Below, one piece after another: positions 1 through 19,044 of a DNA stretch of 32,000 nucleotides. Below the pieces are notes generated by a model. It had not been told where the DNA came from. It was given only the letters and a program-made list of their open reading frames with translations, and did no database searches. The stretch comes from Ilumatobacteraceae bacterium (lineage in GTDB: Bacteria > Actinomycetota > Acidimicrobiia > Acidimicrobiales > Ilumatobacteraceae), in contig CAVORH010000049.1 in the NCBI GenBank assembly GCA_963698565.1, positions 1 to 32,000 of the forward strand. The letters run 5' to 3'. Both the position numbers and the translations under genes were made by a program. The stretch's first letter is position 1, and each line of letters opens with the position of its first letter.

Positions 1-32
1 CGGTTTCGGCGACTTCGTTCCCTGAACCGCCA

Positions 33-860
33 GTGCCTCGGCCCAGTGCCAAGGAGATCAACCCTGGCGAGTGGACCCTCACACCACCAACCGCCGCAAC
101 TCTCTTCCACCTCCCGGATTGGTGGGCGGCCGACGGGGGTTTGAGTGTTCGTCCACGTCTGTTTCCACTGCAGCCCGCCAACCTCATGAGGGGGCGACGC
201 CTTTGCAGGGCATTGCAGCACCAGATTCGACACTGCTTCGAATCAACCGTCCTTGTCGAGAGCGGCGCCGATGGCAACGAATTCATGGCTGAGCTCGTGG
301 CGATTCGAGTCGCCGGTGCCCTTGTACTTATCCAGTCGCTCAATGAGCTTTTCGCAAGCGCGCACCCGCGGACCGCTCCCGAGGATCCATCCTCGTCCCC
401 ATACGAGCGCCACCTCGAAGCTGACGAAGCGGGGCGAGTCGTTGCCGGGCTGAAGCTCATACGAAACGCCGAGACACACGACTCGACTGCGACCCTGGAT
501 TTCGATCTCGACAGAATGGTTACGGCGTTCTTCGACGACGGATCGTCCGGCCTCCGCGTTTTTCCGCAGTGGCGTCAATACGACGACTTGCCTGCATCAA
601 TTGCTCAGAACAAGAAGACCTCACCGAGATTCCACGACCACTACCGACAAGCTGTCGGTGGGACGATCCTGATGGAATCACTTCAAGACTCACTGCGGTT
701 CTTTCTCGACTGTGACGCCCGCATTGCGCGGCTTGCCCTCGGCGGTGAGCCCGCCGAACTGCCGCTGGAGTGCTTCCCGCTGCCTGTAGACCACGTCCAC
801 GGCTACGAGCGTCCGCATCCCTACTGGCCCTCGACGCGAGGGACCCACAGCGCGGAGTAG
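33..860 (+). CDS. hypothetical protein with HEPN-like Rx4H motif (possibly 5'-truncated by the window edge)
   Basis: 275-codon ORF from GTG 33. The same frame has no stop back to nt 3, so the gene may begin left of the window. Motif LIRNAETH (R at 462-464, H at 477-479) fits the R-N-x3-H form of the HEPN RNase signature and follows a helical-looking stretch. No other recognisable domain. Confidence 0.5.
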   Translation: MPRPSAKEINPGEWTLTPPTAATLFHLPDWWAADGGLSVRPRLFPLQPANLMRGRRLCRALQHQIRHCFESTVLVESGADGNEFMAELVAIRVAGALVLIQSLNELFASAHPRTAPEDPSSSPYERHLEADEAGRVVAGLKLIRNAETHDSTATLDFDLDRMVTAFFDDGSSGLRVFPQWRQYDDLPASIAQNKKTSPRFHDHYRQAVGGTILMESLQDSLRFFLDCDARIARLALGGEPAELPLECFPLPVDHVHGYERPHPYWPSTRGTHSAE

Positions 861-944
861 AAGGCGGCCATCAATTATTCGGCGACTGGGGCGTGAACCA
901 TTCCCGGTGGAACGGTCCACCGGCGCCGCCGTCCCGTCGAACCT

Positions 945-2569
945 ATGCTGGCCCCGTGTCACAGGACTTGCCTTGCCATCGGGTGCTTCCTCGCTTCACC
1001 AAGCGGGCTCGAGAACGAGCGCGGAACGGTCAGGGCAGCGATCAACGAGTTCAACGAGGAGGAGGCCTTTGCAAGCAGAGCGGCGTTCATTCCGTTCGGC
1101 TACGAGTCGTCACCTGGAGGTTTCGGTCGTCCGCAGGATGAGATCAACCACACGCTCAGGCAATGCGACTATGCGATCGTTCTGCTCGCTGACCGATGGG
1201 TTCGCCGCCAGGAGGTGACAACGGCTACACGAGCGGGACGGAGGAAGAGTACGAGGAAATCGTGAAGGCGATCGAAGACACTTCTCTCCCCATGCGTGAC
1301 GTGTTAGTCGCGTTCAAGTCGGTTCCTCGCGGTCAGATGGCTGACCCTGGCAAGGACCTCAAGAAGGTCCTCAAGTTCCGCAAGGACCTGGAGAAGAGCC
1401 ACGCGCTCTTCTACAAGCAGTTCGATACGGAGGAGGAGCTGTGCCGTTGGGTGCAGCAGAAGTTACGCGGCGGGGCCCGTTCCGATCTGGGGTGGGGAGG
1501 GGCAATCGCCCGACGATCTCGTGGACGATGCTGCAGATGCGGTGGACGAAGGCCTTCAGTCCTCTGACGAGATGGTCAGCAGAGCCTGGGAACTTGCGTC
1601 CGAGGGTTCGGTTACACAGGCCGAGGTGCTGTTCTCTCGCGCAGTCCGAAACGGCGGCCCCGAAACACTGCTCGAGAGCGCCCGGTTCATGCGCAGACGA
1701 GGACGCCTCGAAGCTGCGTACCAACTCGACCGCGAGTACATCGAGGCAACTGCATCGAAGGATGGCCTGGACATGAGGGTCAATCGGTCCAGAGCGCTCG
1801 CCAACATGGGTGTGGTTCGACGCAAGCAGGGCAATCTCCGAGAATCTAGGGGCCACCTAGTCGAAGCAGTCGCGGTTGCGCGTACTGCTGGACCCGACGG
1901 TGACGTGCCACTCGCGTATGCGCTGGACAACCTTGCACACACCGCTGCCCAGCAGGGAGACCTTGCGACCGCTGAGCACAGCTTGGAGGAAGCGCACTCG
2001 ATACGGGCGAGAGACGACGATCAGGCTGGAATTGCACAGTCGCTTATCAACCTCTCGCTGTCTCAGACGAGCCCGAGGGGACAACGAACTCGCGTTGGAA
2101 CAACTGACGACAGCGATCGGGATTCTTCGCAACTTGAATGGCCAAGAGACTTTGCTAGCCAACGCGCTGGTCGCGGCAGGAGAGGCAGCACTCGATCTCG
2201 AACGACCCGACGCCGAATCAATGGTACGAGAAGGCCTCGACCTGAACGAACGAGTAGCCAACAGTGACGGGATCAGCATTGCTTCCACGGTGCTCGCTCG
2301 CGTCGCCCTGTCTGCGGGGGACATTGACGAGGCGGAGCGGCACGCCGAGCGGACGGCAGAGGAGAGCATCTCATCAACGAACCAAGAGGGCCTGGGCGTT
2401 CTCGCGCACCTGCGGGGTTCGATCGCCCTTGCGCGGGGTGAGTATTCGGCAGCGGTGGAACATCTGGAAGAAGCATTTCGAGCTGTTCGAGCAAACCGGA
2501 TCAGTTCGACGCGCCGATTCCGCGCGGGCGGACCTAGCTACAGCTCGTGCCCGGCTTTCGAATGGCTAG
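945..2569 (+). pseudogene. DUF4062 (TIR/deoxyribosyltransferase-like) - TPR repeat protein, disrupted by about 4 frame changes
   Basis: Sensible protein sequence runs through four ORF-track pieces in different frames. 945-1200 gives CFLASPSGLENERGTVRAAI...CDYAIVLLADRW. ~1199-1500 gives GSPPGGDNGYTSGTEEEYEEIVKAI...ELCRWVQQKL. 1500-2078 and 2078-2476 are TPR-like A/L-rich repeats. 2477-2569 gives ELFEQTGSVRRADSARADLATARARLSNG*. The first two pieces together match the DUF4062 pattern (..ryGs...g.SyTE.Ey..A). Each junction lies at a homopolymer: GGG 1198-1200, G-runs 1470-1503, GGGG 2077-2080, TTT 2476-2478. Confidence 0.6.
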
Positions 2570-3162
2570 GCCTGAATCCAAGTCGCCGACGGCCAAAAGA
2601 AACAGGTGAGCTTGCCGTCCTCGAAAGTTCCGCATCCTGTGTCGATAAAGGCTCGACGGCGATCGACCATTGGTACTCGCGATCCCTGAGGGACGTGACC
2701 GGAGACGTGATATCGGTCGCCGTCGGCGGCGGAGGTCTGGCGCGGGTAGTGCGACGCGAGGATTTCGTTGCCTAAACGGAACTCCGCCTCCAGCGATTGG
2801 AGGAAGCGTCTGTGATCGGGTGATACTGCTGCTACGAACGCCGCTTCCCATTCAGCACCGATCGAAGAGATATAGGACCGGATGGTTGCAGCGCCCCCCA
2901 TCTGCAGAAACGCGTCAAGTCCTCGGCCCTCGAGCGCCGCTCGAAACGCAGCATCATGATTTCCCTCTAGGAAGGTGCACTCCACCGCCGATTGCTCCAG
3001 GCCGACCAGCACATCGAGAACCTGGCAACTGAATCGACCGCGGTTCACGTAGTCCCCGAGGAAGATCAAGCGTTCGACTTCGTCCTCCACGCGACCGAGG
3101 AGGGCCTGAAGACGATCGACGTCTCCATGAATGTCGCCAATGAATCCGAGCCGAGCCGTCAC
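2566..3162 (-). CDS. calcineurin-like metallophosphoesterase (lambda-phosphatase / ApaH-PrpE-like)
   Basis: Motifs GDIHGD, GDYVNRG, GNHD, GGAATIRSY, SGHVP and IDTGCG appear in canonical order. I chose the GTG at 3162 because it forms a GTGA overlap with the upstream stop (3159-3161) and sits 6 codons before GDIHGD. The ORF-track start at 3258 would overlap the upstream gene by 100 nt. Confidence 0.85.
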   Translation of the reverse strand: MTARLGFIGDIHGDVDRLQALLGRVEDEVERLIFLGDYVNRGRFSCQVLDVLVGLEQSAVECTFLEGNHDAAFRAALEGRGLDAFLQMGGAATIRSYISSIGAEWEAAFVAAVSPDHRRFLQSLEAEFRLGNEILASHYPRQTSAADGDRYHVSGHVPQGSRVPMVDRRRAFIDTGCGTFEDGKLTCFFWPSATWIQA

Positions 3163-3443
3163 AGCAGCACCTTCGGCAGAGCTGAGTAGTCGATCTCTGA
3201 ATTCGGGTCTGCGAATGCCAAAGTCGCCATCGTGGCCATCGACCGGTCGCGGTCCCACTCCGCGATGATCAGTTGTTGGATCGTCTCATAGTCAGCACTG
3301 TCGGCGGCGCCGACGAGGACACGCAGCCGGTCCCTCAAGTCGTTGATTTCGCTGACGCCGGGCGTAGGGCCGTCCTCAGGGTCTCTCGACCTCAGCAGCT
3401 CCACTAGTGCCGGATCCTCGAAACGGCGCGCCAACTCACTCAC
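3159..3443 (-). CDS. hypothetical 94-aa acidic protein, no recognisable domain, no His/Cys
   Basis: The ORF is coupled at both ends by 4-nt GTGA overlaps (3440-3443 and 3159-3162) to the nucleotidyltransferase and the phosphoesterase. Coding is inferred from this operon geometry. Confidence 0.6.
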   Translation of the reverse strand: MSELARRFEDPALVELLRSRDPEDGPTPGVSEINDLRDRLRVLVGAADSADYETIQQLIIAEWDRDRSMATMATLAFADPNSEIDYSALPKVLL

Positions 3444-3946
3444 CGAGAAGCATGGCTGACCGAGCGCGAGAGCGGTGAGGTAGATCGCAGATCGAAGGAA
3501 GTATCTCGAGCCACGCGAGCGAGACCCGCTAGAGGAGGATCGACTTGCCGAACACCGACATCGATGATCACGGAGAGGATACGAATCCGCTCAAGACTGG
3601 TAGCCGGATCTGGCTGCCCCATGCGCTGCAGCGCCAGGGTGAGGAACTCCTCCGCCTCATGAAGCACTCGACCATCACGTGCGAGGTGCATACCGAAAAG
3701 TGTGCCTCGCGCATCGAGGAACTGCTTCGGCGTGTAGCAGCTCAGTGTCACATTGCCCCTCACTCGCGTGCCGACTGCAGACTCGGTGACCGCAAGGAGG
3801 TCGAGGTCCGAGGTGTCACAGAAGTCCCCTCGTGCGTAGCTTCCATAGACCATGAGGCCAACGCACTTGTCTGGGAGGAGTGAGACTCCCAAGTTGAGCA
3901 GGTCTCGCGCGCACGTCGAGCGCGTGCAAGCTCGTCCGGACCTCAT
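3440..3946 (-). CDS. Pol-beta superfamily (minimal) nucleotidyltransferase domain protein
   Basis: GLMVYGSYARGDFCDTSDLDLL matches the G-S-x9-13-D-x-D NTase signature. A ~100-aa helical tail follows. The 5' end is uncertain; see the finding on ATG 4091. Confidence 0.75.
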   Translation of the reverse strand: MRSGRACTRSTCARDLLNLGVSLLPDKCVGLMVYGSYARGDFCDTSDLDLLAVTESAVGTRVRGNVTLSCYTPKQFLDARGTLFGMHLARDGRVLHEAEEFLTLALQRMGQPDPATSLERIRILSVIIDVGVRQVDPPLAGLARVARDTSFDLRSTSPLSRSVSHASR

Positions 3947-4105
3947 TGAAGTCGATCCGACTTGTACCCATGCTTCTGGACGCTAGCGGTGGGGCCCGTC
4001 GGCCGGAGGCGGCGAGCCGCACGATTGTCCACCATAAGGAATGAGTCTCGGCAACGGAGTCTTCGGGATGAAACCCGTTGCGGATCGCCATTTCGCGCAC
4101 CTCGG

Positions 4106-4138
4106 CTTCTAACGACTCGTTAGAAGAATCGTTAGAAG
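4106..4138. promoter_or_regulatory. operator-like array: perfect 9-3-9 palindrome plus a third direct copy of the 9-mer
   Basis: CTTCTAACG(4106-4114)-ACT-CGTTAGAAG(4118-4126)-AAT-CGTTAGAAG(4130-4138). The array lies in the least GC-rich 60 nt I counted. It sits between the tRNA terminator and the first possible start codons (4100/4091) of the minus-strand operon. Confidence 0.45.
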
Positions 4139-4151
4139 ATTGCTTGCAGAC

Positions 4152-4192
4152 GCAAGAAAGCCCTGGCGGATCTTGCGATCTACCAGGGCTTT
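4152..4192 (-). terminator. intrinsic terminator downstream of tRNA-fMet
   Basis: On the minus strand: AAAGCCCTGG-ta-GATC-GCAA-GATC-cg-CCAGGGCTTT followed by CTTGCG. This is a 10-bp outer stem, an inner GATC stem with a GCAA tetraloop, and a U-rich tail (UUUCUU). It starts 6 nt after the tRNA 3' end. Confidence 0.6.
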
Positions 4193-4197
4193 CGTAG

Positions 4198-4271
<74 letters not shown>

Positions 4272-4286
4272 TCGAAGTGGAGCATC

Positions 4287-4315
4287 ACTGTACGCCTGCT
4301 GCAGATGATTGACAA
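4287..4315 (-). promoter_or_regulatory. candidate sigma-70/SigA-type promoter for tRNA-fMet
   Basis: Minus strand: TTGTCA (4315-4310), 17-nt spacer, TACAGT (4292-4287). The -10 element ends 15 nt upstream of the mature tRNA 5' end. Confidence 0.5.
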
Positions 4316-4453: not shown

Positions 4454-5509
4454 GTGCACAGTTCGACGAGGTCCTCGCTCCGGTCCTCGTCGGACGGCGT
4501 CATCCGGCTGCGAGCTGTCGACGGCGTCGACGAACTCCCATCGGGCGTCGCTGACGACCAGCATCCGGGCGCGTACCGCACCACGACCACCGGTGGGTCG
4601 CTCCGCTTCTCGTACGCGGTCGGGCCGGACTCGTTGAAGGCGATGGTGCACCCGCCCCGCAGCCCGGTCTGGGCGATGACCCGCGATGACACTGGCTCGA
4701 TCTCGGTGAGCGTCGCACCAACACGTCCCGTCCGCCGCGCCGTACTCGGCGCCCGGGCCTGCGACCTCGCCGCCCTCGAGCGTCTCGACCGCACCCAGCT
4801 GGCCGGGCCGCACCCCGACCGCCAACACGCCGCCGCACGTGCCCAGTTGTTCACGATCGGGGTCGACTGTTCCCAACCGGCCGCCACGTGCTTCTGCGAG
4901 TCGACCGGCACCGGCCCATCCGTCGACAGTGGCGCCGATCTGTCGATGACCGAGATGGGCGACGACGTGGTGCAGTACGTGTTGCGCGCCGGATCGGAGC
5001 AGGGCCGCGAGTTCGCCGAGTCGCTCGGGCTCGCGTCCGCGGGAGCCGACGTCGTCGCCGAGGCCGAGCGACTGCGTCGCAGCGTGCACACCACCGAGCG
5101 AGCGATGCCGACGGATGCGGCATCGATCGTGCTGGCCGATCTCGAACACCCACGCTGGGACGACGTGGCCGAACGCTGCCTCACCTGCGGCAACTGCACC
5201 GCCGTGTGCCCGACCTGCTTCTGCACCGACTTGGACGATCGAATGGAGCTCGACGGCCTCACCACCCATCGCGACCGGGTGTGGGACACCTGCTTCAGCC
5301 TGGAGTACTCACACCTCGGCGCCGGGCCCGCGCGCTCGTCGGCTCGCTCGCGGTACCGACAGTGGCTCACCCACAAGCTCGGCACCTGGCACGACCAGTT
5401 CGGCGAATCGGGGTGCGTCGGGTGCGGGCGCTGCATCACCTGGTGCCCCGTCGGCATCGACCTGACCGCCGAGGTCGACGCGCTCGCGACGTCGGGAGTC
5501 ACGCCATGA
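4454..5509 (+). CDS. hyhB: [NiFe]-hydrogenase group-3b-type beta subunit (4Fe-4S, AsrA/HydB-like)
   Basis: Two ferredoxin-type cluster motifs are present: [16 protein letters not shown] and [12 protein letters not shown]. The N-terminal half is AsrA-like ([29 protein letters not shown]). It is first in an ATGA-coupled beta-gamma-small-large order. 4454 is the first in-frame start, but family-like N-terminal sequence continues upstream in another frame from ATG 4414 (see finding). Confidence 0.85.
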
Positions 5510-6420
5510 CCGCCAGGACGACGCCGACCACCCGTTCTCGTGAACTCGTTGCGGAACTATTCCGCAACGAGTTCACGAGAATGGCTACGAGCACCGGCGA
5601 TCCGATGATCGAACCACGCGTCCACGTCGTGCGGTCGGTCACCCCCGAGACCCCGGGCGTGTTCACACTCGACGTCGTCCCGGTCGACGGCGCGCCCACT
5701 CCGTTCCTGCCGGCGCAGGTCAGCATGCTCGGCGCGTTCGGGATCGGCGAGGCGGCGATCTCGATCAGTTCCTCCGCCGCCGTCGATGATCACCACGAGT
5801 ACACGATCCGTCGGGCCGGAGCGATCACCACTGCACTCGGCGCGCTGCGGCCGGGTGACCAGTTGGCGATCCGCGGCCCGTTCGGCCGGCCGTGGGACGT
5901 CGACGCACTGCACGGCGATGTCGTGATCGCAGCCGGCGGCATCGGGCTCGCGCCCTTGCGCTCGGCCGTGTACGCCCTGCTCGACACGATGCAGGAGCGA
6001 CCGCATCGCCGCATCCTGTTGGTCGTCGGTGCCCGCAGCAGCGCAGATCTGCTCTACTCCGGCCAGTACGACGAGTGGCGAGCCCGCGGCATCGAGGTCG
6101 TCTCGACGATCGACACCGCGGAAGCCGGATGGTCGGGTCGGGTCGGGTTCGTACCGGACGTCGCCGCCGACCTCGATGTCGACTGGGCGATCACCGGAGC
6201 ACTGGTGTGCGGCCCCGACGTGATGATGCGACTGACCGCAGACCGCTTCATCGACCTCGGCGTCGCGCCCGGCTCGATCCAGCTGACGCTGGAACGGAAC
6301 ATGCAGTGCGCGACCGGCCGCTGCGGCCATTGCCAGCTCGGGCCGGTGCTGGTGTGCCGCGACGGCCCGGTGATGACCTATCCCGAGATCGCCGACGCGC
6401 TGCGGGTGCGGGAGCGCTGA
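5506..6420 (+). CDS. hyhG: hydrogenase gamma subunit (FAD/NAD(P)-binding oxidoreductase with C-terminal 2Fe-2S)
   Basis: ATG 5506 overlaps the beta stop (ATGA) and has GGGAG 7 nt upstream. The protein has a ferredoxin-reductase-type fold pattern ([26 protein letters not shown]). A C-terminal [20 protein letters not shown] cluster motif is present. The 4888 start in the ORF track was rejected. Confidence 0.85.
5535..5581. repeat. perfect 47-bp palindrome (22-bp arms, 3-nt centre) inside the first 26 codons of hyhG
   Basis: TTCTCGTGAACTCGTTGCGGAA-CTA-TTCCGCAACGAGTTCACGAGAA, verified base by base. It is about 45% GC in a ~67% GC context. Confidence 0.95.
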
Positions 6421-6430
6421 GGAGGCCACG

Positions 6431-7204
6431 ATGGAGGAACGACGACCGACCCTGGCGGTGTGGAAGTTCGCTTCGTGCGACGGATGCCAGCTCAGCCTGC
6501 TCGACTGCGAGGACGAACTGCTCGCCGTGGCCGACCGTGTCGCCATCTCCTACTTCCCCGAGGCCACCTCCACGATGGTCGAGGGTCCGTACGACGTCTC
6601 GCTCGTCGAGGGCTCGATCACGACCGCGCACGACGCCGAGCGCATCCTCGAGATCCGGCGCCAGTCGGGACTGCTCGTCACCATCGGTGCGTGCGCCACC
6701 GCCGGCGGCATCCAGGCCCTGCGGAACGGTGCCGACATCGCCGAGTTCACCTCGATCGTGTACGCCCACCCCGAGTACATCTCCACGCTCGCAACCTCCA
6801 CGCCGATCGCCGACCACGTCGACGTCGACCTCGAACTCCGCGGCTGCCCGATCGACCGTCGCCAGCTCGTCGCCACGATCGCCGCTCTACTGAACCGCCA
6901 CGTACTGCGGCTGCCGACCACCAGCGTGTGCACCGAATGCAAGGCGGCGTCGACGAGCTGCGTGATGGTGGCCCACGGCACCGCCTGCCTCGGACCGATC
7001 ACCCAGGCCGGCTGCGGGGCGCTGTGCCCGTCGTTCCACCGCGGCTGCTACGGGTGCTTCGGGCCGATGGAGGACCCGAACATCCCCGCGCTCGAGCACC
7101 GACTCGACCAACTCGGGATCGAACCGGAGGCGATCGATCGCCTGATGCGCACCTTCGACGTCGAGGCCTTCGCCCGCATCGCAGCCGAAGGAGCCCGGCC
7201 ATGA
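6431..7204 (+). CDS. hyhS: [NiFe]-hydrogenase small (delta) subunit, group 3 type
   Basis: The N-terminal [15 protein letters not shown] and [10 protein letters not shown] proximal-cluster motifs are present. C-terminal Cys clusters are [28 protein letters not shown] and CYGCFGP. Confidence 0.9.
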
Positions 7205-8517
7205 CCCACAAGTCACTCGACCTGCACGTGCCGACGCTCACCCGCGTCGAGGGCGAAGGGGCGATGCACGTCGTCGTCCGCGACGGCGTGGTCGAGGACG
7301 TCCAGCTCGAGATCTACGAGCCACCCCGCATGTTCGAGGCCTTCCTGCGCGGGCGGGCGCACCACGAACCCGTCGACATCACGGCGCGGATCTGCGGGAT
7401 CTGCCCGGTCGCCTACCAGATGAGCGCGGCCCACGCGATCGAACGGCTCGCCGGTGTGAGCGTCGACGGGCCGATCCGCGACCTGCGACGCCTGCTCTAC
7501 TGCGGCGAGTGGATCGAGAGCCACGTCCTGCACATGGCGTTCCTGCACGCACCGGACTTCCTCGGTGTCGACTCCGGGATCACGATCGCCCGGCAGGAAC
7601 CCGAGCTGATGACCGAGGTGCTGCACCTCAAGAAGACCGGCAACCGGATCATGGAGGTCGTCGGCGGACGTCCGATCCATCCGGTCAACGTGCGCCTCGG
7701 CGGGTTCTACCGGGCGCCGAGCCGGCGAGAGCTCCACGCCCTCGACGCCGACCTCGAACGGGCCCACGCCGCCGCGGTCGCTCTCGTCCGCTGGGTCGCC
7801 GGATTCGAATTCCCCTCGATCCCCGACCGCCTGGCCGAACACACCGAGTTCGTGTCGCTGCGTCACCCGCACGAGTACCCGCTCAACGAGGGCCGCATCG
7901 TGTCGAACCTCGGCCTCGACCTCGACGTCACCGAGTACGGCGAACGGCTCCGTGAGATCCACGTCGAACACTCGACCGCGCTGCACGCCACTCTCGACGG
8001 TGATCGTCGCTACCAGGTCGGCCCGCTCGCACGTTGGATGAACAACTTCGACCTGCTCACCGACTCGGTGCGCGACCTCGCCGGCGAGGTCGGCATCGGC
8101 GAGGTGGAGACCAACCCGTTCCGCAGCATCATCGTGCGGGGCCTGGAGACGGTGTGGGCGCTCGAGGAAGCCCAGCGCATCATCGACGCCTACACCCCGC
8201 CGCCCGAACCCGCCGTCGAGGTACCGCCCGTCGCCGGCACCGGGCAGGCAGCGACCGAGGCCCCGCGGGGCCTGCTCTACCACCGCTACGAACTCGACGA
8301 TGCCGGCATCATCGCCGACGCCGTGATCGTGCCACCCACCTCGCAGAACCAGATCGCGATCGAGGCCGACCTGCGCGACTTCGTGCAGTCACACCTCGAC
8401 CTCGACGACCACACGCTCGGTCACCGCTGCGAGCAGGTGATCCGCAACTACGACCCGTGCATCTCCTGCGCGACCCACTTCCTGCGCTTCAGCAGCGACC
8501 GGATCGGCGACCGATGA
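7201..8517 (+). CDS. hyhL: [NiFe]-hydrogenase large (alpha) subunit, group 3b type
   Basis: ATG 7201 overlaps the small-subunit stop (ATGA). The N-terminal Ni-binding motif RICGICP and C-terminal DPCISCATH are present, as is LTRVEGEG near the N-terminus. The 438-aa length fits group 3. The 6460 start in the track was rejected. Confidence 0.92.
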
Positions 8518-8972
8518 CCACGATCGTGATCGGCGTCGGCAACCGCGACCGCGGTGACGATGCCGTCGGCCCGATCGTGTGCGACCGGCTGCGCGCGCGG
8601 TACCCCGCCGACGCCCCCCTGCGGGTGATCGTGTGTGAGGGCTCGATCCTCGATCTCGCGCTCCACTGGCAGTCCGACGATCACGTGGTGATCGTCGACG
8701 CGATGCAGCCCGGCACGGCGCCGGGACGTGTCGTGACCTTCGACGCGACGGCGGAGCCGCTGCCGACGCCCGGGGCGGTGTCGACCCACGAGATCGACGT
8801 GTCGGTCGCGATCGAACTCGCCCGGGCGATCGGACGGATGCCGGCGCAGCTGCTCCTGATCGGCGTCGAAGCCGCACAGACCGAGTGGGGAACCCCACCC
8901 AGCCCGCCGGTCGACGCCGCGATCGAGGCCGTCGTCGACGAGTTCGTTCGCGACCACCTCGCCATGCGATGA
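8514..8972 (+). CDS. hydrogenase maturation endopeptidase (HycI/HoxW-like)
   Basis: ATG 8514 overlaps the large-subunit stop (ATGA). [19 protein letters not shown] is the typical GxGNxxxxDDxxG start of this protease family. Length is 152 aa. Confidence 0.85.
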   Translation: MTTIVIGVGNRDRGDDAVGPIVCDRLRARYPADAPLRVIVCEGSILDLALHWQSDDHVVIVDAMQPGTAPGRVVTFDATAEPLPTPGAVSTHEIDVSVAIELARAIGRMPAQLLLIGVEAAQTEWGTPPSPPVDAAIEAVVDEFVRDHLAMR

Positions 8973-9044: not shown

Positions 9045-9770
9045 TCAACCGGCGGCGAACGTCGCCAGCTGATCGAGCGTCGTCCGCCGCAGGCGATCGA
9101 GCTGTTGCGGGCGCAGCCGCTCGCACACCGTGCTCCAGTGCAGCGCCACCCAATCACCCACCTCGACAGCGATCGGACTCGTCACCTGTTCGATCACCGG
9201 CTCGCCGAAGCACAGCCGGCTGCCCTCCCACACCAGTGGCCGGCGGCGCGCCAGTGGCACGCCGGCACTGATGTCGACCACCTGCGCCCAGCTGACGCAA
9301 CACTGGTCGACGATGCGCAACGGTTCGTCGACGACGCCACGGCGCATCAACCCCGTCCACGGGGTGACGTGGAGTACGTGGTAGCTGTGGTGCGCGACGC
9401 CGACAGCGACGGACTCGTCGATCCGCGACCATGCTGATCCGGCCCGTCGCCGGAAACGCGCATCGATCGAGTTGCCGAAGTCGTGCACGCTCACCCGGTC
9501 GAGTAGCCCGTTGCCGATCCAGTACGCCTCGACCACGTCGGCGTCGAGTGGGTCGATGCGGTGTGCGGCACCGGCGAGCAACTCGAGGTACGGGTACGCG
9601 CCTTCGAACTGTGCAGCCAACTCGGCGAACCCCCCATCGATCGGTGCATGCAGGTACTCGCCGACGCCCCCGGACGAGACCGGACCACAGTGGCCGAGCC
9701 GGTTGGGAGGCGATGCGAACCGGACGAACCGCAACGGCCCGGAGGGCGCGTCGGGGGTTGCGGCGGGCAT
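9045..9770 (-). CDS. conserved hypothetical protein with HypC/HupF-like C-terminal segment
   Basis: ATG 9770 lies 2 nt after the upstream DMT stop. The 384-aa ORF-track version is an Arg-rich extension overlapping that gene, so I rejected it. N-terminal FVRFASPPNRLGHCGP is a motif I associate with hydrogenase-linked unknowns. The C-terminal CCVSWAQVVDIS...VEVGDWVALHWSTVCERL resembles the HypC pattern C-x3-P-x-VV-x-I ... vGDyVLvH. Confidence 0.6.
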   Translation of the reverse strand: MPAATPDAPSGPLRFVRFASPPNRLGHCGPVSSGGVGEYLHAPIDGGFAELAAQFEGAYPYLELLAGAAHRIDPLDADVVEAYWIGNGLLDRVSVHDFGNSIDARFRRRAGSAWSRIDESVAVGVAHHSYHVLHVTPWTGLMRRGVVDEPLRIVDQCCVSWAQVVDISAGVPLARRRPLVWEGSRLCFGEPVIEQVTSPIAVEVGDWVALHWSTVCERLRPQQLDRLRRTTLDQLATFAAG

Positions 9771-9772
9771 GA

Positions 9773-10747
9773 TCACGACGCCAGCCCGTGCGACGGCCGG
9801 GCCGGCACGCCGCGGCGAGCCGACGACGCGACGACCACGAGGACACCGGCGAGCACGACGAGGTAGCCGACGGCATCGACGGTGATCGGCACGCCTCGCA
9901 ACCCGCTGTTCAGCACGGCCGTCACCACCGCACCGGCGACGAGCACGGCGGTGACATCGGTGGCGGGCGCCATGGCGAGCGCTCGGTACCAGAGCGTCAC
10001 GAAGACACCGAGCGTCGTGCCGGTGACGGCGATCCACCACCACTGCCCGACCGTGAACCCGGCGAGCGCGCCGAGTTCGCCACGGGCGGCGAGCCATGCG
10101 AGCAACAGCGCCGCGCCTCCGAGCATGCGCACCACCGCCAGCCACCGCGCCGGGACCGTCGCCAGCAGGCGCTTGACGACGAGCACCTCGAGCGCCCACG
10201 CCAGGGTGGCAACGAGGATCAACAGCTCACCACGGCCGACACCCGAGATGCTGACACCGCCGCTGACGACGATGTGGCCGACGACCAGCAACGCGATCGC
10301 CAGCAGGTGTGCTGGCCGCAATCGCTCGTGCAGCACGACCGCGGCGCCGACGGCGACCCAGACGACGAGCGTCTTGTGGATGAATGCCGCATCGTTCGAT
10401 GTCGCGAGTGCGAGCCCCTCGAAGAACAGGACGAACGGCACGGCACCACCGATCACGGCAACCACGGCCAACCACGGCCACGTGGACCGACCGATCGATC
10501 CGGGCCGTTGCGCGGCCGGAACCGGCAGCACGACGAGCACGACCGTCAGCAGCACCCCGGCCCAGAGATTCTTGGCGGTCGTGTAAACCGTCGCGTCGTC
10601 GAAGTGACGCACCGCCAGTCCGTTGACGAACACGGCGACGCCGCTGACCAGCGCGGCCACGACCGCGGGCCAGAGCGGCCAGCGATCGCCACGGGCGGAG
10701 ACCGGCGTCGTGGCGCCAGCCCGATCGTTCTGCACCGACGTAGTCAT
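9773..10747 (-). CDS. DMT-superfamily (EamA-like) transporter
   Basis: The protein has about 10 hydrophobic helices in two EamA-like halves. ATG 10747 overlaps the hypC stop (ATGA). Confidence 0.8.
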   Translation of the reverse strand: MTTSVQNDRAGATTPVSARGDRWPLWPAVVAALVSGVAVFVNGLAVRHFDDATVYTTAKNLWAGVLLTVVLVVLPVPAAQRPGSIGRSTWPWLAVVAVIGGAVPFVLFFEGLALATSNDAAFIHKTLVVWVAVGAAVVLHERLRPAHLLAIALLVVGHIVVSGGVSISGVGRGELLILVATLAWALEVLVVKRLLATVPARWLAVVRMLGGAALLLAWLAARGELGALAGFTVGQWWWIAVTGTTLGVFVTLWYRALAMAPATDVTAVLVAGAVVTAVLNSGLRGVPITVDAVGYLVVLAGVLVVVASSARRGVPARPSHGLAS

Positions 10748-10977
10748 GTCCTCGCGTCCTCCTGTTCGAACGGATGCACGGCGTCGCCCAACTCCGAGTC
10801 GTCGGTGATCGCCAGCACGAACCCCATCGAGACGATCACGACATCGCCTGGTCGGACCGCCGCACCCTCGGCGAGCACCACGTCGAGCGACGCCGTCACC
10901 TCACGGCCGGCGAACTCGACGACGGCGCGCCGCTCGTCGAGCAGCCCGAGGACGCGGCCCACCTCACCCAGGCACAT
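10744..10977 (-). CDS. hypC: hydrogenase assembly chaperone HypC/HupF
   Basis: The start was set at ATG-TGC (10977) because HypC requires an N-terminal Met-Cys. The sequence is MCLGEVGRVLGL...AVVEF.G...ASLDVV...VRPGDVVIVSMGFVLAI, 77 aa. Confidence 0.85.
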   Translation of the reverse strand: MCLGEVGRVLGLLDERRAVVEFAGREVTASLDVVLAEGAAVRPGDVVIVSMGFVLAITDDSELGDAVHPFEQEDART

Positions 10978-11075
10978 GACGAACACCAGCCGTCCGCGTC
11001 GACGGTCCCATGACCTCACCCAACTGCGTGCGAGCCACCGGGGCCAGTGCCGAACGACCCTCTCGTACGAGCCGG

Positions 11076-11126
11076 CGTTCCCGTGAACAAGGTGCGCACC
11101 TGGGCCGCGCCTTGTTCACGGGAACG
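11076..11126. repeat. 17-bp-stem inverted repeat sharing termini and spacing with the 5535-5581 palindrome
   Basis: CGTTCCCGTGAACAAGG (11076-11092), 17-nt loop, CCTTGTTCACGGGAACG (11110-11126). It lies 3 nt after the nitroreductase stop and about 100-150 nt upstream of the hypC ATG, all on the minus strand. Confidence 0.9.
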
Positions 11127-11128
11127 GA

Positions 11129-11791
11129 TCAGTCGACCGGTTGCTTCCAGCGGTTGAGGTACGTGACGTCCGCAGCCGGGCGGCGCGGCGCCGGGGTGAA
11201 CGAGTCGCCGGTGTAGTAGCCAACCGCGAGCAGGCACACCTGTGTGACGGTCGGCGGGATGCCGAGCAGCTCGGCGACCTCGGCCTCGTGCTCGAGATGG
11301 AACGTGGTCCACGCCGAGCCGATCCCTCGCGACCGCGCCGCGAGCTGGAAGCTCCACACGCCCGGCAACACCGAGCCGTAGTAGCCCGCGTACGCACCGG
11401 TCGACGAGCCGTCGGGGACCCGATCGAGTCGCATCGACAGCACCAGGGCCGGCACCTCGTGGAGGTGTTCGACGAGGAACATCGCCGAATCGATCACCTT
11501 CGTGCTTCGATCGTCGCTGCGCACCTCGGTGTTGGCCTGCAGGTACGGCCGTCCGACCGCACCGAAGTACTCGGAGATCTTCGCCTTGGTGTCGGGATCG
11601 TCGATGATCATCCACCGGTTGCGTTCGAGGTTGCCGCCCATCGGCGCATGGCTCGCAATGTCGATGCACTCGAGCAGCTCCTCGTACGGCACCGGCCGCG
11701 TGAGGTCGAGCCGCTTGCGGACCTGCTTGGTGGTCTTCAGGAGGAGGTCGGTCTGGTCGAGATCGAAGCCGGTGATCGGGTGCTGTGCCAT
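11129..11791 (-). CDS. nitroreductase-family oxidoreductase
   Basis: The start was set at ATG 11791 (MAQHPITGFDL..). The R-x-R-L/F motif near the N-terminus (VRKRLDLTRPV) and the overall pattern (IDIASHAPMGGN, WMIIDD, AARSRGIGSAWT) are typical of the nitroreductase fold. Confidence 0.75.
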   Translation of the reverse strand: MAQHPITGFDLDQTDLLLKTTKQVRKRLDLTRPVPYEELLECIDIASHAPMGGNLERNRWMIIDDPDTKAKISEYFGAVGRPYLQANTEVRSDDRSTKVIDSAMFLVEHLHEVPALVLSMRLDRVPDGSSTGAYAGYYGSVLPGVWSFQLAARSRGIGSAWTTFHLEHEAEVAELLGIPPTVTQVCLLAVGYYTGDSFTPAPRRPAADVTYLNRWKQPVD

Positions 11792-11838
11792 CGGCCCAGA
11801 ATGGCATTCCGGCTCGCGCCGCCCGCTACGTTGCGCGC

Positions 11839-12783
11839 GTGACCACCACACCTGCCGACACGTCCAGCGCGGCAGCCGCCGACGCCCGGGACCTGTCACG
11901 GGGCTTGATCGGCGCCGGCATCGCCGTGTGCGCCTGGTCGACCGGCACCATCCTGGCCAAGTACATCGACATGGGCAGCCTGGCGATCGGCTTCTACCGA
12001 TTCCTGTTCTTCGCCGTGATGATCATCGTCTGGATGTACGCGCAGGGCACGCCGTTCCGCCTGCGAGTGATGCGCGACTCGCTGTGGGGCGGCATCGCGC
12101 TCGGCGCCGACATCGCCCTGTTCTTCTCGGCGGTGAAGCTCACCAGCGTCGTCAATGCCACGATCATCGGCTCGATGCAACCGATCGTCGTCGGAGTGAT
12201 CGCCGCCAAGTTCTTCGGCGAGAGGATCGGCATGCGCAACGTGTTGTGGTCGCTCGTCGCTCTCTGCGGCACGATCGTCGTGGTCGCATCGTCAGCCGGT
12301 GGCGACGGCAACGACTGGCTCGGCGACCTGCTCGCACTGGCCGCGATGCTGTCGTGGAGCGCCTACTTCATCACCTCGAAGAACTCGAAGAAGACCATGA
12401 CCTCGACCGAGTTCACCGCTGGCACGGCATTGTGGACGGTGATCATCTGCGCTCCGCTGGGGCTCGCATTCGGGCAGGACATGACGTGGCCGTCGCTGTC
12501 GAACTGGGGGCTGCTGATCGTGATGGCTGTCAGCTCCGGCCTGATCGGCCACGCGATGATGAACTGGTCGCTGGTGCGTATCCCACTCTGGGTCGGCTCC
12601 ACGTTCACCCTCCTGATCCCCGTGTTCTCCGCGCTGCTCGCCTGGCTGGTGCTCGGCGAGGCCGTCACGGCGATACAGGGTCTCGCGATGGCCGTGGTGA
12701 TCGGTGCGCTCGCCGTGGTCGTTCGCAACCAATCCCAGCCTGCTCCTGCCGCACCGACTGAACCACCAACCCCGTTTGCGTGA
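11839..12783 (+). CDS. DMT-superfamily (EamA-like) transporter
   Basis: The protein has ten predicted helices and EamA-like repeats. I preferred GTG 11839 because the ORF-track start 11785 overlaps the divergent nitroreductase start. The start remains uncertain. Confidence 0.75.
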   Translation: MTTTPADTSSAAAADARDLSRGLIGAGIAVCAWSTGTILAKYIDMGSLAIGFYRFLFFAVMIIVWMYAQGTPFRLRVMRDSLWGGIALGADIALFFSAVKLTSVVNATIIGSMQPIVVGVIAAKFFGERIGMRNVLWSLVALCGTIVVVASSAGGDGNDWLGDLLALAAMLSWSAYFITSKNSKKTMTSTEFTAGTALWTVIICAPLGLAFGQDMTWPSLSNWGLLIVMAVSSGLIGHAMMNWSLVRIPLWVGSTFTLLIPVFSALLAWLVLGEAVTAIQGLAMAVVIGALAVVVRNQSQPAPAAPTEPPTPFA

Positions 12784-12830
12784 CGACTTCCGGTGGGCCG
12801 CCCCACCGAGAACTCGACGCAAACGGGGTT
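12768..12830. repeat. ~63-bp nested-hairpin intergenic repeat, copy A
   Basis: The outer stem pairs AACCCCGTTTGCGT (12768-12781) with ACGCAAACGGGGTT (12817-12830). The inner stem pairs CGGTGGG (12791-12797) with CCCACCG (12802-12808). The left arm also encodes the last 4 codons and the stop of the DMT gene. A homologous copy lies at 18984-19044. Confidence 0.85.
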
Positions 12831-18288: not shown

Positions 18289-18972
18289 GTGCGGTCCGCC
18301 TGTGCCGACCGATCGGAGCGATACGGTGCCGGCGTGTTCGAACTGAACGGCGCAGAGGTCGTCGGTTACCTGGCCTCGGCGCTGGTCGTGGTGTCGTTGG
18401 CGATGACGTCGGTGGTGCGACTGCGCATCATCTCCCTGCTCGGCTCGATCACGTTCGTCGTCTACGGAGCCCTGATCGGCTCGGCTCCGATCCTGATCAC
18501 CAATGCGCTGATCGCCGGCATCAACGTCTGGTTCCTGCGCAAGGAGTTCGCGTCGGGAAGCTCACGGGGCGTGGACCTCGGCGTGTCGCACATCCGCCCC
18601 GACTCACCGTTCCTCGCCGACTTCGTCGCGTTCCACCTGGTCGACATCCATCGGTTCCAACCCGACTTCCACCTTCCCGACGGGGATGACGTGGTCACCC
18701 TGCTCCTCAACCGCGACGGACTCCCCGCCGGGTTGCTGATCGGACGCCGAACCGGGTCGACGCTCACGATCGACCTCGACTACGTGCTCGGCCCGTACCG
18801 CGACTCACGCATCGGGCGGTGGCTCTACGGCCCCGGCGCCGCGGTGTTCCGAGCCGACGGGATCGACGCACTTCGCAGCGCCGGCACCACCGACACCCAT
18901 CGCAAGTACCTCGAGCGTGTCGGCTTCCGCGCCGCACCCAACGACCCCGACCTCTACGAACTCACCCTCTGA
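18289..18972 (+). CDS. membrane protein: 3-TM YgjV/SemiSWEET-like N-terminus fused to GNAT-like C-terminal domain
   Basis: Three hydrophobic helices occupy residues ~25-85. The C-terminal half ends with the GNAT-like pattern ...DLDYVLGPYRDSRIGRWLY...HRKYLERVGF. The start codon is uncertain. Confidence 0.55.
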   Translation: MRSACADRSERYGAGVFELNGAEVVGYLASALVVVSLAMTSVVRLRIISLLGSITFVVYGALIGSAPILITNALIAGINVWFLRKEFASGSSRGVDLGVSHIRPDSPFLADFVAFHLVDIHRFQPDFHLPDGDDVVTLLLNRDGLPAGLLIGRRTGSTLTIDLDYVLGPYRDSRIGRWLYGPGAAVFRADGIDALRSAGTTDTHRKYLERVGFRAAPNDPDLYELTL

Positions 18973-18983
18973 GCACCCCCGCC

Positions 18984-19044
18984 CACCCCGTTTGCGCGCA
19001 ACTTCGGGTGGACCGGGCCACCCGAACCGCAACGCAAACGGGAT
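18984..19044. repeat. ~60-bp nested-hairpin intergenic repeat, copy B
   Basis: The outer stem pairs CCCGTTTGCG (18987-18996) with CGCAAACGGG (19033-19042). The inner stem pairs TTCGGGTGG (19003-19011) with CCACCCGAA (19018-19026). It shares ACCCCGTTTGCG, ACTTC..GGTGG and CGCAAACGGG blocks with copy A. Confidence 0.85.

Follow-up and report, generated by a model that had tools for sequence, protein, structure and literature searches.

Two palindromes beside hydrogenase genes as probable copies of a dispersed, REP-like hairpin repeat of Ilumatobacteraceae

The two palindromes which accompany the hydrogenase genes in the contig examined here are probably (we put this at roughly 60%) copies of a lineage-specific, dispersed, REP-like repeat of Ilumatobacteraceae and not parts of a hydrogenase-specific control. 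The family is present in many genomes and gene contexts, and the two copies in the window, i.e. the whole stretch of 32,000 nucleotides that was analyzed, are ordinary members whose sites are also occupied in relatives. Their location by hydrogenase genes is incidental. A literature search on the motif string, and on palindromic elements of Ilumatobacter, found nothing relevant, and to our knowledge no such repeat system has been described for Acidimicrobiia. The 51-bp hairpin repeat is a previously undescribed family, lineage-specific to Ilumatobacteraceae (Acidimicrobiia).

Two palindromes in a hydrogenase region

The two elements and their parts are as follows.

5533..5583, no strand: element copy A, 51 bp, containing a perfect 47-bp palindrome (22+3+22) and reading cgTTCTCGTGAACTCGTTGCGGAActaTTCCGCAACGAGTTCACGAGAAtg; left foot CG-TTCTCGTGAAC, 25-nt core TCGTTGCGGAACTATTCCGCAACGA, right foot GTTCACGAGAA-TG
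5535..5545, + strand: left 11-mer foot of copy A, TTCTCGTGAAC
5571..5581, - strand: right 11-mer foot of copy A, GTTCACGAGAA on the + strand
11076..11126, no strand: element copy B, CGTTCCCGTGAACAAGG-17 nt-CCTTGTTCACGGGAACG, with a 17-bp stem; left foot CG-TTCCCGTGAAC, 25-nt core AAGGTGCGCACCTGGGCCGCGCCTT, right foot GTTCACGGGAA-CG
11078..11088, + strand: left 11-mer foot of copy B, TTCCCGTGAAC
11114..11124, - strand: right 11-mer foot of copy B, GTTCACGGGAA on the + strand

A check of the sequence found both palindromes where the initial annotation had placed them, with arms 25 bp apart in each. As it had described, the 11-mers of A and B are equal at ten of 11 positions (12 of 13 when the preceding CG is included) and the interiors differ, A being fully self-complementary while B consists of a 17-bp stem and a 17-nt loop. 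The loop of B is itself capable of additional pairing. The predicted RNA hairpins reach -45 kcal/mol for copy A (z = -10) and -44 kcal/mol for copy B (z = -6).

With up to one mismatch TTCYCGTGAAC matches the whole window at the four arm positions of A and B and at one unrelated position, which makes five matches against about 0.9 expected, and none of 100 shuffles of the window got to five. From the window, the scan for paired feet returned A and B and nothing else; 50 shuffles yielded no such element. That A and B are unrelated hairpins sharing their ends by chance would be in accordance with the presence of just two copies in the window itself. However, in the statistical test of the 11-mer which had been proposed together with the palindromes, shuffles never reproduced the observed counts, and the same architecture with fixed 25-nt spacing is found in at least 38 genomes. 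The coincidence reading, to which we would assign next to no probability, is already refuted. A BLAST search of the 68-bp site A region against plasmids gave a single chance match, viral contigs gave three chance matches to the element and nothing more, and a scan of the window with Rfam 15 at gathering thresholds returned one tRNA and no family matching the elements.

The genes around the two copies, with their Pfam assignments, are these.

4454..5509, + strand: hyhB-like Fe-S subunit gene (Fer4_22)
5506..6420, + strand: hyhG-like NAD(P)-binding subunit gene, longest ORF (NAD_binding_1, DHODB_Fe-S_bind)
6431-7204, + strand: hyhS (Pfam)
7201-8517, + strand: hyhL (Pfam)
end at 8972, + strand: HycI protease gene (Pfam)
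9045-9776, - strand: DUF6390 gene (Pfam)
9773-10747, - strand: EamA transporter gene (Pfam)
10744..10977, - strand: hypC (HupF_HypC), start at 10977, N-terminus MCLGEVGRV
11060..11075, no strand: junction left by the loss of a 1.1-kb gene (367-aa membrane protein), from alignment to L007 (6560-6790) and L088 (13270-14447)
11129..11899, - strand: nitroreductase-family gene (Nitroreductase)

Pfam confirmed the neighbors that had been named for the two copies, hyhB and hyhG for A and the nitroreductase gene and hypC for B; an exact-protein look-up of HypC gave no record. Copy A begins 24 nt past the stop codon of hyhB, and copy B lies 2 nt past the stop of the nitroreductase gene, which is on the minus strand, and hypC follows after about 100 nt. 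The placement of A between two genes can be refined, as the copy is situated inside the longest hyhG ORF, whose ATG at 5506 overlaps the hyhB stop as ATGA. There it is in frame at the 5' end of hyhG and encodes 16 residues (HyhG residues 10-25), and the last base of its right foot is the A of an in-frame ATG (5581-5583). Judging from the N-termini of homologues, the conserved HyhG body begins at Met 5605 (MIEPRVHVV).

Two other features of this region were observed. The DUF6390 and EamA genes (9045-10747), between the hydrogenase protease gene and hypC, are kept in all syntenic relatives (L005, L087-L090; retrieved loci are given by their L numbers), which suggests a link to hydrogenase maturation or function. 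The beginning of the window (1-4300) has a G+C content of about 61%, against 67-70% elsewhere in the window, codes for TPR proteins, a metallophosphoesterase and a nucleotidyltransferase, and ends at a tRNA gene (4198-4271, minus strand). Phage-type integrase genes are found on the same side of the hyh operon in L001, L005 and L088, and this part of the window is probably a variable island at the tRNA.

A dispersed family with conserved feet and a pairing core

Public genomes, one per species, were scanned with the pattern CGTGAAC-N20-30-GTTCACGRGAA, which gave at least 117 loci. Among the matches listed, at least 73 loci belong to at least 38 genomes of Ilumatobacteraceae, Ilumatobacter or unclassified Acidimicrobiales type; the feet in those genomes are 25 nt apart in 70 copies, 26 nt in 12 and 20 nt in one, and the self-complementarity of the core is 0.76. 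At least 44 of the listed loci come from other taxa, where spacings are scattered and self-complementarity (0.32) is at chance level. Altogether at least about 90 copies are present in at least 38 Ilumatobacteraceae-type genomes, beside unrelated genes. This supports one of two suggestions in the initial annotation, namely a small palindromic mobile or REP-like family. Against such a family it would have counted an 11-mer that is common and randomly placed; the 11-mer is indeed common, but it is paired at 25-26 nt and its placement is non-random.

The shared architecture is CG-TTCTCGTGAAC-[25-26 nt core]-GTTCACGAGAA-CG, 51 bp long, with near-invariant 13-bp inverted feet (CGTTCTCGTGAAC / GTTCACGAGAACG). 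In the logo of 182 half-elements, which reads CGTTCTCGTGAAC, positions -1 to 11 are conserved and the flanks are not. The outer flanks are also not complementary to each other, which means that the element ends at CG and that the unit is 51 bp. Most copies were gathered with the exact pattern fixing CGTGAAC/GTTCACG, so the invariance of these seven bases per foot in that set is partly circular; loci chosen by protein show the same feet. Variant feet were also found among the protein-selected loci, CGTGATC/GATCACG in L214 and a hybrid in L215, which indicates that the family is broader than the search pattern. No solo feet were found in 660 kb. Gemmatimonadaceae and other taxa yield matches whose gap is 20 nt (L112, L139, L155, L161, L166, L173, L179, L185, L192, L204); these appear to be a recurrent false positive, a conserved coding segment (…VNLL.NA.KFT) that by eye reads as a histidine-kinase ATPase motif.

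Feet and core differ in the way they vary. Across 79 distinct 51-mers the foot pairs are without variation (seven foot bases being fixed by the pattern for most copies), while each of the 11 core pairs occurs as three to five Watson-Crick pair types, for example CG in 31 and GC in 28 at one pair. Pairing in the core amounts to 82%; it falls to 48% if the arms of different elements are combined and to 32-44% if an arm is shifted against its partner. The core interior is thus under pairing constraint, and the hairpin is kept through double substitutions.

The cores also resemble each other within genomes. Two cores of one genome have a mean identity of 0.71, those of different genomes 0.47 (permutation p < 0.0005), and an identity of at least 80% is reached in 45% of the within-genome comparisons against 5% of those between genomes. 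The same core type can be present in several species (that of copy B in L101, L105, L118 and L197), but the types cluster by genome. At sites A and B, and at a nuclease locus described below, the core type differs between genomes; the A and B copies share a type in L087 as well as in L088, and likewise the elements on both flanks of the nuclease gene match. Different cores at the same site, together with matching neighbors within a genome, indicate copy-to-copy replacement or conversion and not independent drift.

From all of this we infer that the elements are non-coding repeats which would form a hairpin or a cruciform, their feet serving as the recognition site for a trans-acting protein. 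Spread and homogenization would proceed from copy to copy, by replacement or conversion anchored on the feet, and copies would persist where they are least harmful, at the 3' ends of genes or in the tolerant N-terminal linker of HyhG. Consequences for the neighboring genes, be it a stop codon contributed by the element, a stable RNA hairpin where a transcript ends or the 16-residue in-frame insertion in HyhG, would then be by-products. The family separates a fixed recognition foot from a core of structure only, and its core types are replaced genome-wide while the insertion sites persist, and this pattern opens the maintenance of such repeats to direct testing. In the sampled loci, about 660 kb, we found no event of transposition, no duplicated target site and no autonomous parent element.

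Placement beside genes and persistence at individual sites

Gene contexts were taken from a simple home-made codon-usage gene caller trained on the window and are accordingly crude. Of 96 copies 33 lie in convergent, 30 in tandem and 12 in divergent gaps, 15 are intragenic (eight of these at the hyhG site) and six are at an edge. Elements occupy 30% of convergent intergenic regions, 9% of tandem and 11% of divergent ones (chi-square p = 1.5e-7). Within 30 nt after a stop codon are found 73% of copies, and in 14 of 89 the TGA stop is supplied by the element itself. The neighboring genes, which mostly have the element at their 3' end, code for acyl-CoA dehydrogenases, short-chain dehydrogenases, transporters and others, and only the hyh/hyp-linked copies adjoin hydrogenase genes. 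In the 15 nt read towards the element, on either strand, C makes up 46% and G 25%, compared with 37% and 32% in controls. No run of T follows the element, T being present at 8-18% at the flank positions of about 180 half-elements.

A host function would also explain why different species keep an element at one site and why copies stand so close behind stop codons. The elements could, for instance, be RNA 3'-end elements selected by the host, with the hairpin just past the stop codon in the transcript acting as a terminator that is independent of a U-tract or assisted by a factor (and possibly bidirectional), or as a stabilizer against 3' exonucleases; the foot would then be the binding site of a dsRNA-binding factor or a cleavage site of RNase III. 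The post-stop position, the threefold enrichment in convergent gaps, the very stable hairpins and the C-rich, G-poor approach on either strand are all in accordance with this, and there is a precedent in another actinobacterial lineage. The TRITs (Tuberculosis Rho-independent terminator motifs) of Mycobacterium, 147 palindromes conserved in sequence, stand at about -8 relative to stop codons; they are bidirectional, lack a canonical U-tract and were reported as restricted to that genus (PMC3152330). As conserved actinobacterial palindromes with narrow stop-codon positioning they are the nearest published analogue of the Ilumatobacteraceae elements, although they differ from them in sequence and lineage, and a bipartite foot and core, genome-specific cores and a flanked protein gene are not described for TRITs. 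The terminator role of TRITs has weak Term-seq support, since they coincide with few mapped transcript ends of M. tuberculosis (bioRxiv 10.1101/2022.06.01.494293), and according to PMC3993855 mycobacterial RNA polymerase requires a U-tract, which the elements lack. Copy A, moreover, is situated in frame in an ORF at the junction of hyhB and hyhG, which are translationally coupled, so that a terminator there would do away with the hydrogenase, and 11-12 copies are in divergent (promoter) gaps. Mismatches on the sense strand, 23 G.U and 29 A.C, show no excess of G.U and thus no RNA-strand bias. A role in termination also leaves the genome-wide swapping of core types unexplained. We therefore regard the 3'-end reading as unlikely, though the strongest of the competing ones. 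As for a canonical intrinsic terminator, it was rejected for both copies, as no U-tract directly follows the hairpin and a consensus scan flagged neither A nor B. Termination of the nitroreductase transcript by copy B, as the initial annotation proposed, is possible but unproven.

The repeat reading is followed more closely at the two sites themselves. The conservation check suggested along with the palindromes found elements at both site A and site B in several relatives. At site A the element was seen in the DNA of nine loci, among the relatives in L001, L007, L008, L011, L013, L087, L088 and L090. HyhG homologues from metagenomes with 77-87% identity are 301-306 aa long, and the palindrome-encoded peptide in them has the form T/S-RELV-xxxxxx-EFTR, with constant ends and a variable middle (AELFRN, GDILAN, RESVPH, REPVPH and others). 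In the 74 closest homologues the peptide is present in 35, absent in 38 and half present in one. Site A is empty in L010 and L012, and in L005 the left arm alone remains. L009, whose flanks are near-identical to the window, has 55 nt missing at site A (330-372; the element plus 8 nt). This deletion shifts the frame from the ATGA start, so L009 HyhG must start at the downstream conserved Met (MIEPRVHVV).

These comparisons also bear on whether the elements are ordinary MITEs, in which case a conventional insertion sequence would have the 13-bp feet as its terminal inverted repeats, and its transposase would move the 51-bp derivative with duplication of a CG target. Inverted ends 13 bp long, CG on both sides of most copies, the dispersal of the copies and their varying presence or absence among relatives would be expected of such an element. 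On the other hand, neither a left and right foot 0.7-3 kb apart, as in a long element with these ends, nor a transposase gene recurring beside the elements was found in about 660 kb, and in a MITE there is no need for the core to be palindromic, covarying and constant in length. The CG on either flank is ambiguous because CG is itself palindromic, and it may be part of the stem. L009 compared with the window represents an imprecise 55-nt deletion and not a clean excision, and from the L009/window and L007/L088 comparisons neither a target-site duplication nor a precise empty site is definable. An origin as ordinary MITEs is therefore improbable.

At site B the orthologous element is present in L001, L087, L088, L089 and L090, where it overlaps the stop codon (TTC TCG TGA) of a gene for a 367-375-aa membrane protein. 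In the relatives this gene separates hypC from the nitroreductase gene, on which it converges. It is present in L001, L007 and L087-L090, its stop codon there being the TGA of the element, and because L007 is the closest relative (86% nucleotide identity), the window lineage must have lost 1.1 kb up to copy B. The loss makes the co-directional order of the nitroreductase gene and hypC secondary; the copy on the hypC side was originally between convergent genes. The 367-aa protein was considered as a partner enzyme of the elements and rejected, as it is a multi-pass membrane protein without a Pfam or NCBIfam match and is found at this locus only.

The second suggestion in the initial annotation was a paired-half-site operator which coordinates the hyh structural and hyp maturation genes. 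The window copies do flank the hyh-hyp cluster and both sites are kept in several relatives, but at least about 90 further copies stand by unrelated genes, mostly at their 3' ends, in at least 38 genomes, and A and B themselves are at 3' ends or within an operon and not at promoters. The hyh operon is found without copy A in L005, L009, L010 and L012, and copy B too is missing from L005. The core type changes between genomes, and the pairing constraint on the interior would be needless for an operator. This reading has not been borne out: the distribution of the family excludes a hydrogenase operator, and we leave it only a very slight probability. Elements of this family should not be taken as operon-specific regulators. 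They can mislead start-codon calls, add or remove peptide segments, as in HyhG, and supply stop codons.

A candidate partner protein and known repeat systems

In several loci a pair of elements about 1.1 kb apart encloses a gene for a 311-aa protein with the Pfam domains AbiEi_4 and REase_MTES_1575. Most of these pairs represent one orthologous locus (CP_ATPgrasp genes, the gene itself, acyl-CoA dehydrogenase), and five further loci were for that reason fetched by protein alone. Four of the five are the same locus in other genomes, while in L212 the gene lies between those for an H+-pyrophosphatase and DUF3097; with L119, a third context, the contexts are at least three. In all, the nuclease gene is bracketed by family elements in nine of 11 loci and has at least one adjoining element in all 11. 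An element is found 100-125 nt upstream of the start codon in nine of 11 loci and at -11 to +15 nt from the stop in ten of 11, the exception being L214 (+55, variant foot). The elements on the two sides have matching cores, and in the five protein-selected loci (about 58 kb) all elements found flank the nuclease gene. About 35-40 nt beyond the element, the spacer upstream of the gene contains a TANNNT box.

The AlphaFold model of the protein (pLDDT 87) has two recognizable parts. In a fold search, residues 1 to about 195 of the model match the AbiEi antitoxin (6Y8Q, E = 1e-7) and Rv2827c (1ZEL), and the C-terminal 100 residues match the catalytic domain of the I-Bth0305I homing endonuclease (TM 0.79), Vsr and a DUF559 protein. 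The residues E-V-D-H...H...D-K-x-R-D are invariant among 45 homologues. Searches of PDB by sequence and of NCBIfam gave no match for the nuclease, and in the literature on this protein family no paper was found that ties it to repeats.

This nuclease is the best candidate for the predicted trans-acting protein, the association being correlative and the gene situated outside the window. It is conceivable, if rather doubtful, that the elements and this protein, which combines an AbiEi-type wHTH with a Vsr-like PD-(D/E)xK domain, form a partnership of the REP/RAYT kind built on a different enzyme. The protein would recognize the feet, autoregulate through the element upstream of its own promoter, and nick or cut extruded or mismatched elements, which would lead to copy-to-copy conversion. 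Such conversion would keep the palindromes symmetric and homogenize core types across the genome. If the wHTH-Vsr-like nuclease is indeed the partner, a large actinobacterial family labelled very-short-patch-repair endonuclease or hypothetical would gain a function, and the partnership would be a second, independent invention of a system of repeat plus enzyme.

Short dispersed palindromes (REPs, REPINs, TRITs) are widespread, and we know of an enzyme only for the pairing of GTAG-REPs with RAYTs. Like REPs and REPINs with their RAYTs, the present elements are short dispersed extragenic palindromes after genes, lineage-specific and vertically persistent, with a conserved gene that is repeat-flanked on both sides. 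They differ in the logo, where the feet (CGTTCTCGTGAAC) carry no GTAG or CGTC tag at the ends, whereas the REP superfamilies have such a tetranucleotide at one end (Di Nocera 2013, PMC3733652); no Actinobacteria are listed in that survey. A REP is a 20-40-bp imperfect palindrome or doublet, while here a single 51-bp hairpin of the perfect type has a stem of 20-24 bp and a covarying core. The flanked gene is likewise different, coding for the AbiEi-like and Vsr-like protein and not for an IS200/IS605 Y1 transposase, and no Y1 RAYT gene was found beside elements in the sampled loci. Copy A in HyhG is reminiscent of the Rickettsia palindromic elements (RPEs) and of intragenic REPs, palindromic repeats which lie in frame in coding genes as peptide segments. 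RPEs, however, are 100-150 bp long, belong to an AT-rich obligate intracellular lineage and are in some cases CGTC-tagged (PMC3733652), while in Ilumatobacteraceae only the hyhG site is clearly intragenic.

The AbiEi proteins offer another comparison. They bind inverted repeats at their own promoters, and the candidate is predicted from its model to share the fold of AbiEi of S. agalactiae and Rv2827c of M. tuberculosis; the upstream element stands just before the TANNNT box, where an autoregulatory operator could sit. The differences are that the candidate has no AbiEii toxin partner and instead carries a C-terminal nuclease domain, and that the putative sites are dispersed and not confined to one promoter. 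Uptake sequences, the DUS of Neisseria and the USS of Haemophilus, are conserved 10-12-mers that occur as inverted pairs downstream of genes, but mostly or often they are single copies with variable spacing, unlike the feet of this family, which are never solo in the 660 kb and have a fixed spacing. Pairs of DNA uptake sequences, attC, recombinase core and protelomerase sites were set aside on anatomy. Integron attC has the R''/R' boxes RYYYAAC...GTTRRRY, with extrahelical bases, and its cassettes are arrayed beside an IntI integrase. Of these boxes the feet CGTGAAC/GTTCACG fit only the AAC/GTT, stems are near-perfect, copies are solitary and not arrayed, and no integrase adjoins the elements in hyh loci.

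Other palindromes were observed as well. In L212 a paralogue of the nuclease is followed by two palindromes in tandem, members of a third family, GCGATGAGT-N24/25-ACTCATCGC, which overlap the 3' end of the paralogous AbiEi_4/Vsr-like gene (L212:12419-12530). Nuclease paralogues may each serve their own palindrome family, with GCGATGAGT/ACTCATCGC in L212 as an example. The window itself holds a second family, at 12772-12826 and 18988-19041, with feet CCCCGTTTGCG / CGCAAACGGGG and a 36-37-nt self-pairing core. Both of its copies lie between convergent genes, one behind the EamA gene and one behind the gene that ends at 18972, and the family was absent from all other loci retrieved. It may be another that is served by a paralogue. 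At the nuclease locus of genome MFD00392.bin.2.326 (L109:3418-4734) both flanking elements are kept with other sequence between them, which includes a 92-aa ORF that is also present beside elements in L140 and L143.
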